Assembly: GCA_947632275.1 (NCBI GenBank)
Contig: CANROR010000002.1
Span: 1 to 39,716, forward strand
Direction of reading: 5' to 3'
Length of the DNA: 39,716 nucleotides
Source of the DNA: an uncultured Bacilli bacterium
GTDB lineage: Bacteria > Bacillota_I > Bacilli_A > RF39 > UBA660
Shown: positions 9,583 through 13,905 of the stretch, piece after piece
How positions within the stretch are numbered: the stretch's first letter is position 1
Layout of the letters: the number at the start of each line of letters is the position of its first letter
Notes under the pieces: model-generated
Database searches by the model: none
What the model was told of the DNA's origin: nothing
Seen by the model: only the letters and a program-made list of their open reading frames with translations
Translations under genes and position numbers: made by a program

Positions 9583-10212
9583 ATGGATAACAAAATTGAT
9601 GTCTTATTAGATGTAGATGATGTAGTTTGTTTTCCAGCTTATTTAGTTTGGATAAATGAATTTTTAAATACTAATTTTCAAGAAGATGATTTTAAAGGCT
9701 ATATTAAAGAAAAAGAAATAATGAAGGGCGAAGAATTACAGGAATTTAATAAATTTATTAAGGACCGAAATCCTTATCAAGAAGCCATAGTTTTACCTCA
9801 AGCTATTGAAGTTATCAAAAAACACTTAGATACTTGTAATTATTATATGCTTTCTTCTTGTATTAACCCTTGTTTAAAAGAAGAATCAGGAAAGTTATTT
9901 ACGTATAAATATAATTTTTTATTAAAAATATTACCGTTTATTAATCCCGAGAATTTTGTTTTTACTAATGCTAAACATTTATTAAAAGGAGACATTCAAA
10001 TTGATGATTATTTACCCCATTTACTAGCTAATAAAACGCCTTATAAAATTTTATTCCCGGCTTCCCATAATAAATCGGTTCCAGATACTGAGCTAAAAAA
10101 GAATAAGATAGTTCGCGCCGGTTCTAATTGGCGAAATGGTTGGGAAAATATTGATATTTTATTAGAACAACAAGAAGCTAAAAGTAAAAAATTGATGCGA
10201 AAGAAAAATTAG
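9583..10212 (+). CDS. HAD-superfamily 5'(3')-deoxyribonucleotidase-like protein (NT5C/YorS-like)
   Basis: N-terminal DxDxV motif (LLDVDDVVC), late IQIDDY motif, about 200 aa. Confidence 0.5.
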   Translation: MDNKIDVLLDVDDVVCFPAYLVWINEFLNTNFQEDDFKGYIKEKEIMKGEELQEFNKFIKDRNPYQEAIVLPQAIEVIKKHLDTCNYYMLSSCINPCLKEESGKLFTYKYNFLLKILPFINPENFVFTNAKHLLKGDIQIDDYLPHLLANKTPYKILFPASHNKSVPDTELKKNKIVRAGSNWRNGWENIDILLEQQEAKSKKLMRKKN

Positions 10213-10214
10213 TG

Positions 10215-10244
10215 TTGCAAATCTAAAATTAAAAGTGCTATACT
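10215..10244 (+). promoter_or_regulatory. Sigma-A-type promoter for the leader / metallophosphoesterase pair
   Basis: TTGCAA, 18-nt spacer, TGC-TATACT (extended -10). Confidence 0.5.
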
Positions 10245-10270
10245 AAAAATAAGAATAGGGAGTGGTGAGA

Positions 10271-10315
10271 ATGATGAAGATGTTTTTAAAAATTACTACT
10301 CCTTTTAAAATGTAA
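10271..10315 (+). CDS. Candidate 14-codon leader peptide MMKMFLKITTPFKM
   Basis: GGGAG SD 8 nt upstream of the ATG. The TAA stop lies inside the 5' arm of the following terminator. Confidence 0.4.
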   Translation: MMKMFLKITTPFKM

Positions 10316-10346
10316 GAGTGTCCTTGGATAAGACACTCTTTTTTAT
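10314..10346 (+). terminator. Intrinsic terminator / attenuator in the 5' leader
   Basis: Perfect 9-bp stem AAGAGTGTC / GACACTCTT, 9-nt loop, TTTTTT tail. Located 11 nt before ATG 10357. Confidence 0.75.
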
Positions 10347-10356
10347 GGGAGGTATT

Positions 10357-11343
10357 ATGGAAGAAAAATTTGAAATGTTAAAAGAACTAACAACGAGAGA
10401 AATTAAACTGACGGATGCTTGTGAATTTTTAGAATTAAATCAATTAGAAGTTTTAAGTTTAATTCGTCATTTAAGACTCGAGGGCATTAATATTGTGAGC
10501 CAAGTAAAAGATGATGATATTTATATTTTTAATCAAGGCGAACGCGAAGTTTTAGGGGATTTTTCTTACCATTTTAAAACTGATGAAAATCATGAATTTA
10601 AGTTTGTGGCTATCTCGGATACCCGTTTTGGTTCCAAGTTTCAACAATTAGCAATTTTAAATGATATTTATTTAAAAGCTCATGCTTTAGGTTATGATAA
10701 AGTTATTCACTGTGGAAATATTTCCGAAGGTATTTATCCTTTAACTAATATTTATTCGGAATGTAATTTTCTCGATGATACGTTAAGACAAGTTGATTAT
10801 ATCACCGAATATTATCCCTTTATTGAAAGCATGAAAACTTATTTTATCACGGGGATAAAAGATGAAAAGCATTTACAAAATAAAAAAATTAATATTGGGA
10901 AAAGGATTAATGATGCCCGTGATGATATGATTTATTTAGGTTATAGTTCTTGTAATACGACAATTGATAAAGTAAAAATGTTAGTCTTTAATCCCAAACT
11001 TTATAAAACTTATACGGTATCCTATCGGCCGCAACAACAAGTTGATTCGTTTCGGAGCGAAGATAAACCGGATATTATTTTATACGGGGGCCTTCTTCAA
11101 ATGGAAAAATTCACTTATCGGAATGTAAAATGTATTTCAGTTCCGAGTGTATGTGCGACAACGAAAGAAATGAATGATAAACGTTATTCAAATACCATTG
11201 GAGCTTGGTATATTACAATTACAACGGATCGCTTTGGCAATTTAAAAAATTTAAAAGCCATGAATTCGGTATATTATAAAACGAATAAAGATGATTATTT
11301 AAAACCAAAAGTTTTAAAATTAGAAAGGGAGAAAAAATTATGA
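10357..11343 (+). CDS. Winged-helix-like N-domain + degenerate (ligand-less) calcineurin-like metallophosphoesterase paralog
   Basis: Paralog of the next gene. The aligned motif positions read SDTRFG, CGNISEG, TGIKDEKH, FNPKLYK, YGGLLQ. GGGAGG SD precedes ATG 10357; the longer GTG 10318 ORF would run through the terminator. Confidence 0.65.
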   Translation: MEEKFEMLKELTTREIKLTDACEFLELNQLEVLSLIRHLRLEGINIVSQVKDDDIYIFNQGEREVLGDFSYHFKTDENHEFKFVAISDTRFGSKFQQLAILNDIYLKAHALGYDKVIHCGNISEGIYPLTNIYSECNFLDDTLRQVDYITEYYPFIESMKTYFITGIKDEKHLQNKKINIGKRINDARDDMIYLGYSSCNTTIDKVKMLVFNPKLYKTYTVSYRPQQQVDSFRSEDKPDIILYGGLLQMEKFTYRNVKCISVPSVCATTKEMNDKRYSNTIGAWYITITTDRFGNLKNLKAMNSVYYKTNKDDYLKPKVLKLEREKKL

Positions 11344-12332
11344 GTAGGGATCGCGAATATGTCGAAAGACAATATAAATATATTCATAATGGGGCTTCAG
11401 TTGAAGAATTTATGTTGAAATTTCATCTTAATAGTACCGAATTAAAAGGCTTATTAGAATTATGCCGTATTTATGGCAAGAATATTGAGATTGTGGAAAA
11501 AGATGGTACCTTAGTTTTTGATAAACCCTTTATTCGGAATTTAGATACGCGGAAACCGGATTTAGATCCTAACAATTTAAGATATTCTCAAATATGTGTC
11601 GTTTCGGATACGCATTTTGGTAATATTCATCAACAATTGCATTTATTAAATAAAGTATATCGCGAAGCTTATAATCGGGGGATTACGAAAGTTTATCATG
11701 TCGGCAATATTGTTGATGGCAATTATCCCAATCGGCCGGAACAACCCCGGCAACAATTTTTACATGGTTTTGATGAACAAGTGGGATATGTTGTTGATAT
11801 GTATCCCCGCGTTAAAGGTATTACGACTGAATATATTTTAGGTAGTCACGATGAAACCCATTATAAAAATGGGCAAGCAACAGTTAATAATTGGTTATCG
11901 AGATGTCGGAAAGATATGATTTTTTTAGGCCAAGATTGTGCATTAACTGAACTTAATGGTGTCAAGATTTTTTTAGACCATCCAGGAGGAGGTTCAGCCC
12001 AAAGTTTATCTTATAAACCTCAAAAAAGAATTGAAATATTAGAATCGGATTATAAACCCAAAATTTTATTAATTGGTCATTATCATAAAAGTTATTATTT
12101 TGTTTATCGCAATGTTCATGGAATTTTAGTTCCATCTTTCTGTGATAAAACTCAATTTCAACAAAAGCAAGGTTTATCCAATGTAATTGGCGCTTATTTT
12201 ATCGATATTTATGCCGATAAAAAAGGTAATGTGGAATATTTTTGCCCTGAAGAAGTTATTTTTCGCCCTAATGATATGTGGGAAGAAGCCGGTAAAGATA
12301 AAGAACGGGTACGCCAATTAGTTATAAAATAA
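11340..12332 (+). CDS. Winged-helix-like N-domain + calcineurin-like metallophosphoesterase (ligands retained)
   Basis: Motifs SDTHFG, VGNIVDG, LGSHDETH, LDHPGGG, IGHYHKS in canonical order. 4-nt ATGA overlap with the preceding paralog. Confidence 0.7.
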   Translation: MSRDREYVERQYKYIHNGASVEEFMLKFHLNSTELKGLLELCRIYGKNIEIVEKDGTLVFDKPFIRNLDTRKPDLDPNNLRYSQICVVSDTHFGNIHQQLHLLNKVYREAYNRGITKVYHVGNIVDGNYPNRPEQPRQQFLHGFDEQVGYVVDMYPRVKGITTEYILGSHDETHYKNGQATVNNWLSRCRKDMIFLGQDCALTELNGVKIFLDHPGGGSAQSLSYKPQKRIEILESDYKPKILLIGHYHKSYYFVYRNVHGILVPSFCDKTQFQQKQGLSNVIGAYFIDIYADKKGNVEYFCPEEVIFRPNDMWEEAGKDKERVRQLVIK

Positions 12333-12383: not shown

Positions 12384-13268
12384 ATGCAAGAAAAAGTAAA
12401 AGAAATTATTAAAAGTCGTCAAGGTTTTATCGCGGCTTTAGATCAAAGTGGAGGGAGTAGTAAAAAAACTTTAGCCAATTATGGGATCGCGGAAACTACC
12501 TATAAAACCGAAGCCGAAATGTTTGATTTAATTCACAAAATGCGTTCACGGATTATTACTTCTCCAAGTTTCACGGCCGATCATATTTTAGGGGTAATTT
12601 TATTTGAACATACGATGATGCATAAAGTGGAAGATTTAGATACGGCCGATTATTTATGGCAAAAGAAAAATATTTTAGCTTTTTTAAAAGTCGATGTTGG
12701 TTTAAGCGAGATGACGCAAGGCGTTAAATTATTAAAAGATATTCCCAATTTAGATGATAAATTAAAAATGGCTAAGACTAAAAACATTGTTGGGACGAAA
12801 ATGCGGTCAGTGATTTATGAACCGAATGCTGAGGGTATCAAAATGGTAGTTGACCAACAATTTGCCTTGGCCGAACAAATCGCCAAGTATGATTTAATTC
12901 CGATTATTGAACCCGAAGTCGATATTTACACCGTTGAAAAATTTGGTTGTGAACAAATCTTAAAAGCGGAAATCGAAAAGCATTTAGCAACTTGTAATTT
13001 TGATGTTATTTTTAAATTTACTTTGCCCGAATTAGATAACTTTTACGATGATCTTTTAACTAATTCCCATGTTTTAAAAATTGTGGCTTTATCTGGTGGT
13101 TATACTCGGGAAAAAGCTAATATGTTATTAAAAAGAAATAAAAATATGATTGCTTCTTTTTCGCGCGCTTTACTAGAAGGCTTAAATGTTAACCAAACTG
13201 ATGAAGAATTTAACCAAGCTTTAAAAGAAAATATAACTTCCATTTATGAGGCTAGTTGGCAAAAATAA
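12384..13268 (+). CDS. fda: Fructose-bisphosphate aldolase, class I
   Basis: GFIAALDQSGGSSKKTL N-terminus, LKVDVGL (Schiff-base Lys region), IIEPEVDI. About 294 aa, like Gram-positive class I Fda. Confidence 0.85.
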   Translation: MQEKVKEIIKSRQGFIAALDQSGGSSKKTLANYGIAETTYKTEAEMFDLIHKMRSRIITSPSFTADHILGVILFEHTMMHKVEDLDTADYLWQKKNILAFLKVDVGLSEMTQGVKLLKDIPNLDDKLKMAKTKNIVGTKMRSVIYEPNAEGIKMVVDQQFALAEQIAKYDLIPIIEPEVDIYTVEKFGCEQILKAEIEKHLATCNFDVIFKFTLPELDNFYDDLLTNSHVLKIVALSGGYTREKANMLLKRNKNMIASFSRALLEGLNVNQTDEEFNQALKENITSIYEASWQK

Positions 13269-13269
13269 A

Positions 13270-13905
13270 ATGAAAAAATTGATAACGGAAATTTTAGATG
13301 CTTTAGAATCACATGGCTATGAAGCTTATTTAATCGGGGGCTTTGTCCGTGATTATTTGCTCCATAAAGAGTCTTTAGATGTTGATATTTGTACGAGTGC
13401 TTTGCCTAATGACTTAGAACGTTTATTTAAACTTAAACCTAATCAATTCGGAGGCATTCATTTTAAAAAAGATAAATACGATATCACTATTACATCTTTT
13501 CGCCAAGATTTAAATTATGTTCATGGCTTTCCCCAAGAAGTGAAGTTTAATGTTGATTTAAAGACGGATTTGGCCCGTCGCGATTTTACAATTAATGCTA
13601 TTTATATGACCAAAGATGAGCAAGTTTTAGGACCTACTGCTTATCTAAACGATTTACATAATAAAGTAATTAGAATGATTGGCGATCCTTTAGAAAGAAT
13701 CCAAGAAGATCCTTCGCGCATTATTCGGGCTTTACGATTTAAAGTAGATTTAGGTTTTACCCTTGAAGAGAAGTTAGCTCAAGTAATTAAAGAAAATAAA
13801 GATTTATTAAATTTGATATCAAAAAGTAAAAAGAATAAAGAATTAGCCAAAGTTAAAAACCAAGACCAATTCTTAAAAATTTTAAAAGAATTAGATTATA
13901 TTTAA
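13270..13905 (+). CDS. tRNA nucleotidyltransferase / poly(A) polymerase-family protein, head+neck only (211 aa)
   Basis: GGFVRDYLL, DVDICT, RRDFTINAIY, EDPSRIIRALRF motifs. Ends about 190 aa short of a typical CCA-adding enzyme. ATG 13270 preferred over the overlapping 13246. Confidence 0.75.
   Translation: MKKLITEILDALESHGYEAYLIGGFVRDYLLHKESLDVDICTSALPNDLERLFKLKPNQFGGIHFKKDKYDITITSFRQDLNYVHGFPQEVKFNVDLKTDLARRDFTINAIYMTKDEQVLGPTAYLNDLHNKVIRMIGDPLERIQEDPSRIIRALRFKVDLGFTLEEKLAQVIKENKDLLNLISKSKKNKELAKVKNQDQFLKILKELDYI

Follow-up and report, generated by a model that had tools for sequence, protein, structure and literature searches.

A tandem of live and dead DP1-like winged-helix phosphoesterases in uncultured gut Bacilli

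DP1 is the small 3′-5′ exonuclease subunit of the archaeal family-D DNA polymerase (PDB 5IHE, 8PPT). In the literature searched, its homologs are described in archaea and eukaryotes only, and DP1-type phosphoesterases have been treated as an archaeal invention that was passed in dead form to the eukaryotic polymerases, the domains being inactivated in eukaryotic B subunits and in some archaea (PMC7544198). Here, we analyzed two adjacent genes, referred to as A and B, within a window of 39,716 nucleotides from an uncultured Bacilli bacterium (i.e. the whole stretch of DNA under study: assembly GCA_947632275.1, contig CANROR010000002.1, positions 1 to 39,716 of the forward strand). The pair constitutes a tandem of one live and one dead DP1-like phosphoesterase, each with a winged helix, and is as such a new architectural variant of a known superfamily. 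In the literature searched, no bacterial pair with winged helices and similarity to DP1 was found to have been described.

Among the described proteins, the phosphoesterase domain of DP1 is closest to that of the pair in both fold and sequence, and in either lineage a live domain and a dead scaffold version exist. In contrast to DP1, A and B have a winged helix in place of the oligonucleotide/oligosaccharide-binding (OB) fold and the DP1 N-terminal domain, are half as long, occur in bacteria and phages, and have neither DP2 nor a polymerase C-terminal-domain partner nearby; moreover, their live and dead copies pair together rather than with a polymerase. Mre11 and SbcD belong to the same superfamily, share the two-metal motifs, and act on DNA as dimers, but A and B lack their capping domain, and both sites of the Mre11 homodimer are live. 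Genes for a Rad50/SbcC ATPase were absent beside the cellular pair in 160 related loci. MJ0936/YfcE (Pfam Metallophos_2) provides the best Pfam model for B and has a similar core sandwich, and Vps29 resembles the pair as another dead scaffold form of the phosphoesterase fold. Both differ from A and B in being single-domain proteins of ~170-190 amino acids (aa) without a winged helix, and their matches were weaker than those of DP1 in the Foldseek, PDB profile, and NCBIfam comparisons.

The gene pair and its conservation

Gene A (10357..11343, + strand) encodes 328 aa, with a winged helix (~aa 1-62) followed by a dead phosphoesterase-like domain (~aa 80-300). Gene B (11340..12332, + strand) encodes 330 aa, with a winged-helix domain (aa 1-62; 11340-11525, + strand) and a DP1-like metallophosphoesterase domain (aa 81-310; 11580-12269, + strand). 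A preliminary description of this DNA had reported two genes of ~330 aa overlapping by ATGA, and rereading of the sequence placed this overlap, shared by the stop codon of A and the start codon of B, at 11340..11343 (+ strand). Through translational coupling, A and B would be made in a fixed proportion; spacings in other unfused loci range from -26 to +16 nucleotides (nt). The ATG of gene A at 10357 is preceded by a GGGAGG Shine-Dalgarno sequence (10347-10352, 4 nt upstream). A longer reading frame from a GTG at 10318 was rejected, as this codon lies within the stem of a terminator hairpin and the orthologs align from the ATG.

Comparison of the two proteins (BLASTP) yielded 33% identity across 273 residues (E = 2e-45), a similarity far beyond chance that marks A and B as paralogs, as had been claimed. 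All motif strings listed in the preliminary description were found at the aligned columns, namely SDTHFG, VGNIVDG, LGSHDETH, LDHPGGG, and IGHYHKS in B against SDTRFG, CGNISEG, TGIKDEKH, FNPKLYK, and YGGLLQ in A. The scaffold, i.e. YRNV..VPS.C and IGA.[YF]I.I, is common to both. With respect to the five motifs of the superfamily (DxH, GD, GNH[DE], H, and GHxH), motifs I, IV, and V including their metal ligands are intact in B of the window, and A is without all five. Eleven ligand and motif columns were then extracted from alignments of 120 A and 120 B orthologs. At these columns, 118 of the B orthologs read D-H-D-D-S-H-D-H-G-H-H, and every A ortholog reads D-R-N-E-x-[KR]-D-[NS]-G-G-L. Judged from these alignments, motifs I-V are all destroyed in each of the 120 A orthologs; none retains the ligands, and the catalytically dead state that had been proposed for A thus extends to the whole family.

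Despite the lost ligands, gene A is not decaying. The ratio of nonsynonymous to synonymous substitution rates (dN/dS, Nei-Gojobori method) was ~0.07-0.18 for A and 0.10-0.14 for B, each against eight orthologs and approximate, as synonymous sites were near saturation. Purifying selection on A is, by these values, as strong as that on B. Averaged over 79 loci, identity to the window protein was 61.6% for A and 66.0% for B.

Only B was matched by Pfam (Metallophos_2 with 31.0 bits at a cut-off of 27, and Metallophos with 24.9 bits at a cut-off of 21.5); for gene A, nothing was matched. Membership in the calcineurin-like metallophosphoesterase superfamily follows for B from scores above the Pfam gathering threshold and for A from its homology to B. 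The AlphaFold2 (AF2) model of B (predicted local distance difference test, pLDDT, 82; predicted template modeling score, pTM, 0.84) displays three helices and a two-strand wing (aa 1-62), a poorly ordered linker, and the phosphoesterase sandwich from aa 81 onward. When this model was compared with the PDB using Foldseek, 130 matches were obtained at E ≤0.001, and the 50 listed were all members of the superfamily. The winged-helix assignment for the N-termini of A and B, which had been described as wHTH-looking (i.e. resembling a winged helix-turn-helix), is supported, since the same topology (helix-helix-helix-strand-strand) was modeled by AF2 in both halves of a natural A-B fusion and since distant members match helix-turn-helix models at this position (HTH_11 and HTH_24 in Pfam; BirA, ArsR, and Csa3 in NCBIfam).

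The distribution of the pair was derived from a scan of one genome per GTDB species, which yielded 76 loci, all from metagenome-derived assemblies and nearly all labeled as metagenome-assembled genomes; three further loci came from a contig look-up. The names attached to the loci include Bacilli, Firmicutes, 'Tenericutes', Erysipelotrichaceae, Candidatus Coprovivens, and Clostridium sp. CAG:302. An A-type gene is located directly upstream of a B-type gene in 78 of the 79 loci. A metagenome scan with less-degenerate A-type queries (D-R-D-E-E-H-D-H-G-H-L at the key columns) gave a second set of 80 loci from more distant lineages, in which A again precedes B, pairs or fusions being present in nearly every locus, and the flanks consist of variable housekeeping genes. 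Flanking genes differ among loci: the pair of the window lies between a gene of the NT5C type upstream and an aldolase gene downstream, and another locus has histidyl-tRNA synthetase upstream and a WYL protein downstream. The two genes are accordingly co-conserved as neighbors, also in the divergent metagenomic set. Searches for representatives at 50% identity gave a family size of 2,738 clusters at E ≤0.001 and of 729 clusters at E ≤1e-30.

In 18 of the 79 loci, A and B are fused into one open reading frame (ORF) of 661-686 aa (fusion loci L041, L046, L048-L051, L053-L056, L058-L062, L064, and L077; e.g. L041:4192-6189). A search with one such fusion recovered full-length fusions in at least 120 protein clusters from NCBI, ENA, JGI, and Logan assemblies, and on a neighbor-joining tree of B domains the fused state requires at least three changes (fusion or fission). 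Throughout the divergent two-domain proteins, the degenerate copy precedes the intact one, which is located at the C-terminus. These natural fusions give strong independent backing to the heteromer that had been proposed from the window alone, and the pattern by which enzyme/pseudoenzyme pairs are recognized, a dead paralog under purifying selection together with co-occurrence or fusion of both genes, is seen here. Because of the adjacency, the fusions, and the fixed order of live and dead copies, an obligate A-B complex, presumably a physical heterodimer, is very likely. An AF2 model of a natural fusion (48 paired sequences) was confident for each domain and did not place their mutual arrangement (pTM 0.47).

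Two further substitutions concern the active site of B. The preliminary description had called GN in motif II and GSHD in motif III unusual, and both are present in the window. As a trait of the family, GN does not hold: 119 of 120 orthologs have GD, and B of the window is the sole carrier of Asn at the first Asp of this motif (Asn123, codon AAT at 11706..11708, + strand; GAT to AAT). GSHD, with Ser for Asn, is fixed in the clade of the window, whereas the wider family has GNHD. The position of Asn123 corresponds to the metal-bridging Asp of the superfamily, and Mre11 loses its nuclease activity when Asp is replaced by Asn at the equivalent site. Asn123 may therefore be crippling for the enzyme in this genome; it is either a real variant, possibly inactivating in this strain, or an assembly error.

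Relationship to DP1

Foldseek comparison of the B model with the PDB returned DP1 chains of the family-D polymerase (PolD) at all of ranks 1-9 (E = 1.8e-11 to 2.8e-9), followed by MJ0936, Vps29, and Mre11 at ~1e-7 (Mre11/SbcD E ~5e-7). When a profile of 62 diverse members was run against all PDB sequences, DP1 was the sole significant match (E = 2.6e-8), with the aligned blocks SDxHxGS, GDxxDGxxxYPxQ...DEQ, GNHD, and PD..GHxH..YRxV....QTxFQ; a profile of A-type sequences also had DP1 as its top match, although weakly (E = 0.022). Among the 18,950 models of NCBIfam, the DP1 model NF003118 was matched by 45 of the 62 members (best E = 1.5e-18), the YfcE model weakly by 12, and the SbcD model weakly by three. 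Furthermore, several phage proteins in BFVD that match the B model carry the depositor name 'DNA polymerase II small subunit'. The resemblance to PolD and the polymerase B subunits, which had been pointed out in the preliminary description, was thus borne out by three kinds of search, and sequence comparison and structural modeling both indicate DP1 as the closest known relative of the A/B family.

An orthologous relationship between A/B and DP1 was considered and rejected. Scores stayed far below the curated cut-off for DP1 (28 vs. 445 bits; NCBIfam PRK04036 models), and neither B nor any of the 62 members matched DNA_pol_E_B (PF04042) in Pfam at E ≤0.01, a family against which a check had been suggested together with Metallophos and Metallophos_2, the two that B matches just above threshold. 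In the AF2 model of B, a winged helix instead of an OB-fold domain precedes the phosphoesterase. Neither DP2 nor a PolB with a zinc-finger C-terminal domain was found among the neighbors in the window or in the 160 related loci. The family is best described as an uncharacterized branch of winged-helix metallophosphoesterases whose nearest characterized relative is DP1. The earlier statement that the pair could not be assigned to a characterized system also stands, as Pfam matches were generic, the NCBIfam matches to PolD were below threshold, and PADLOC returned none.

Leader of the operon

A leader precedes gene A. It starts with a promoter-like site (10215..10244, + strand) composed of a -35 element TTGCAA (10215-10220), an 18-nt spacer with TGn, and a -10 element TATACT (10239-10244). 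In a consensus scan, this site had 9 of 12 consensus matches plus the TG and may function as a promoter; in 38 aligned orthologous leaders, a -10 box (TATACT or TATAAT) is found at a constant distance from the leader. Hairpin P1 (10257..10304, + strand) follows, whose 5′ arm AGGGAGUGGUGA (10257-10268) pairs with UUACUACUCCUU (10293-10304). A small ORF (10271..10315, + strand) contains 14 codons, MMKMFLKITTPFKM, and the stop codon TAA (10313-10315). Its Shine-Dalgarno sequence is part of the 5′ arm of P1 and the 3′ arm lies inside the ORF, P1 thereby enclosing the ATG. Finally, an intrinsic-terminator-like hairpin with a U-run extends over 10314..10344 (+ strand; stem 10314-10322/10332-10340, 9-nt loop, U-run 10339-10344). 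The first two bases of its 9-bp stem are the last two of the small-ORF stop codon, and the U-run ends 2 nt before the Shine-Dalgarno sequence of gene A. The region 10240-10360 was predicted to fold with -29 kcal/mol (z = -3.25).

The preliminary description had stated that the pair sits behind its own regulated leader. This leader proved real and conserved across orthologs, whose structures were compared by folding each sequence separately. Of 73 distinct orthologous leaders, 67 have a hairpin with U-run at this position, the stem sequences differing, and the terminator is kept in 33 of 52 leaders from more distant lineages. An ORF of ≥8 codons whose end is at most 8 nt away from the base that opens the terminator stem occurs in 45 of these 73 leaders, most frequently with an overlap of 2 nt. 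The small ORFs are 13-23 codons long, and their peptide sequence is not conserved. The ATG of the ORF is invariant in the 38 aligned leaders and, with the U-run, forms the most conserved columns. Pairing between the block that precedes the small ORF and the 3′ half of this ORF recurs in 41 of 45 orthologous leaders, with arm sequences that differ among lineages. Rfam 15 gave no match to the leader at gathering thresholds and chance-level matches only at E ≤10, and RNAalifold found no consensus structure in a MAFFT alignment of the 38 leaders, an alignment that is not structure-aware.

The interval between the terminator and gene A leaves no room for a promoter, and A and B must therefore depend on read-through for their expression. 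RNA polymerase entering the operon would encounter an intrinsic terminator directly adjacent to the ribosome-binding site of gene A, and read-through is probably set by translation of the short leader ORF with its stop codon overlapping the terminator stem. We propose ribosome-dependent attenuation because the 5′ arm of the terminator would be occupied by a ribosome that completes translation of the small ORF. The leader is therefore a candidate for a new attenuator of this kind. It resembles attenuators of the pyrBI type and of the bmrCD/vmlR type, the latter being antibiotic-responsive leaders, in the succession of promoter, translated short ORF, intrinsic terminator, and structural genes, and in the position of the ribosome relative to the terminator as the likely control point. 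In contrast to these, its peptide is without conserved regulatory codons, a convincing antiterminator helix was not found in the leader, the ribosome-binding site of the small ORF is sequestered in P1, and the element lies outside Rfam.

A second terminator-like element, a GC hairpin with a T-rich tail, was noted at 11735-11761 inside gene B, across the codons of the conserved RPEQPRQQF. It is probably due to chance, as such sites are no commoner than in shuffled sequence.

Viral relatives, putative activity, and genomic context

Single-domain members of the family, in which all ligands are retained and an additional N-terminal region is usually present, were found in 25 IMG/VR viral contigs. 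Two contexts recur. In the first (contigs L088, L089, and L091; e.g. L089:3111-10377), a polymerase-primase fusion of 1349 aa is followed by a single-strand annealing protein, the phosphoesterase, one small ORF, and a helicase; a search of PDB sequences for the polymerase family of the 1349-aa protein gave nothing useful. An annealing protein normally has an exonuclease as its partner, and a nuclease is often found alongside a terminase. The phosphoesterase of these three contigs occupies the slot expected for the recombination exonuclease. In the second context, the relative is located at the start of the packaging block, beside the terminase large subunit. A weak match to PHROG 7339, annotated as 'DNA repair exonuclease', was also obtained. 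One of 50,697 genomes of cultured viruses contains a member, namely ORF43 of the archaeal Halorubrum tailed virus BLv36 (L080:8809-9969), which lies within the head-morphogenesis block, between portal/MuF-like and capsid genes, and not in a replication module.

Some additional features were seen in the single-domain proteins. The viral-type members (e.g. P0260) have an extra ~70-100 aa before the winged helix with a conserved W...E.WR..YR pattern, and one member, P0386, weakly matches the N-terminal domain of the small terminase. Several of the genes adjoin those of terminase large subunits.

In the explanation that we favor, A and B would be two subunits of one enzyme, a pseudo-dimer of DP1/Mre11-like metallophosphoesterase domains, in which B supplies the sole two-metal active site and A, a duplicate without metal ligands, serves as an obligatory structural partner. 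With two N-terminal winged helices per complex, nucleic acid would be held by both. The putative activity of the pair is most likely that of a DNA nuclease, because of the viral contexts, the DP1/Mre11-like fold, and the two winged helices; it would be a metal-dependent exo- or endonuclease for the processing or repair of chromosomal DNA in a clade of uncultured, AT-rich gut Bacilli. A single-copy phage nuclease would probably be the origin of the family. For the explanation as a whole, i.e. an asymmetric enzyme that acts as a putative metal-dependent DNA nuclease of these bacteria, we consider the chances about evenly balanced.

Several observations weigh against it. The phosphoesterase fold does not predict the substrate. 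No DNA-metabolism gene is conserved beside the cellular pair in two sets of ~80 loci each, and the recurrent neighbor that was found would fit nucleotide metabolism equally well: a gene for an NT5C-type 5′(3′)-deoxynucleotidase lies directly upstream of the operon (9583-10212), and an NT5C-like gene of the haloacid dehalogenase (HAD) superfamily holds this place in ~24 of 80 loci, being the only recurrent neighbor of the cellular pair. This adjacency might reflect a functional connection with nucleotide metabolism or simply residual synteny. The AF2 model of the fusion did not place the A-B interface (pTM 0.47). Moreover, as the metal-binding Asn of motif III is replaced by Ser clade-wide and the bridging Asp of motif II by Asn, B of the window may be weak or inactive.

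The same neighbor favors another explanation, in which the pair would be a phosphodiesterase for small molecules or nucleotides (with cyclic, dinucleotide, or 2′,3′-cyclic phosphate substrates) in nucleotide salvage, and the winged helices would serve dimerization or regulation instead of DNA binding. The better of the two Pfam matches, Metallophos_2 of the MJ0936/YfcE type, and the weak YfcE matches in NCBIfam fit such an enzyme as well. DP1 matches, however, were stronger and more frequent than those to YfcE/MJ0936 in every comparison, the viral relatives reside among genes for replication, recombination, and packaging, and two winged helices plus a dead scaffold are hard to explain for a small substrate; we regard a phosphodiesterase as unlikely. 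Asn123, unique among the 120 orthologs, and the loss of nuclease activity upon the equivalent change in Mre11 would fit a pair that is non-catalytic in this genome and only binds DNA or regulates, e.g. as autoregulators via the winged helices. Every other ligand of B is nevertheless intact, the remaining B sequence is conserved like that of its orthologs (80% identity, dN/dS ~0.13), and the lone G-to-A difference, seen in a contig of metagenomic origin, may represent an error or a rare variant; we regard a non-catalytic pair as rather improbable.

The proximity to DP1 itself raises the question of whether A and B could be the bacterial equivalent of DP1 and the eukaryotic B subunits and assist a DNA polymerase as accessory subunits, with B as a trans-acting 3′-5′ proofreading exonuclease and dead A docking on the polymerase (e.g. 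DnaE). Besides DP1 being the closest family, such a role would be in line with the inactivated DP1-type domains of eukaryotic B subunits and some archaea (PMC7544198) and with the three viral contigs in which the relative lies two genes after the polymerase-primase fusion. On the other hand, the pair lacks an OB fold and is not accompanied by DP2 or a zinc-finger partner, scores were far under the DP1 cut-offs, no polymerase is a conserved neighbor in 160 cellular loci, and the winged helix stands in for the domains that mediate the interactions of DP1. We consider this role very improbable. Of a similar kind, and hardly to be expected, is the far-reaching interpretation that DP1 and the B subunits have this family as their sister group in bacteria and phages, with A-B as a bacterial polymerase accessory module. 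If this were true, B would be a trans-acting exonuclease for proofreading or end processing and dead A the scaffold for docking on a replicative or repair polymerase of uncultured gut Bacilli, and the shift from live to dead between archaeal DP1 and eukaryotic B subunits would have been repeated independently.

The remainder of the window represents ordinary chromosome, with genes for an acyl-CoA synthetase, a MiaB-like enzyme, UvrB, ClpC, a DHH pyrophosphatase, DnaD, endonuclease III, and an aldolase, as well as two tRNAs. A plasmid origin was rejected (no match in 72,556 plasmids), as was membership in a defense system (A and B unmatched in PADLOC). Downstream of the pair, an ORF of 219 aa (13246-13905) comprises only the head domain of CCA-adding enzymes/poly(A) polymerases and is unusually short for a CCA-adding enzyme; its first 23 nt are shared with the end of the class I aldolase gene.

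Taken as a live-plus-dead pair, A and B are widespread in uncultured gut Bacilli and related to putative phage nucleases. They belong to a large bacterial and phage family that is nearer to DP1 than to any other characterized phosphoesterase and may provide an outgroup for the origin of DP1. As the family has given rise to the tandem repeatedly, both as gene pair and as fusion, it could serve as a tractable bacterial model for a nuclease subunit turning into a scaffold. As a conserved chromosomal gene set of lineages without a cultured representative among the recovered loci, the pair would mark an unknown piece of their DNA metabolism.

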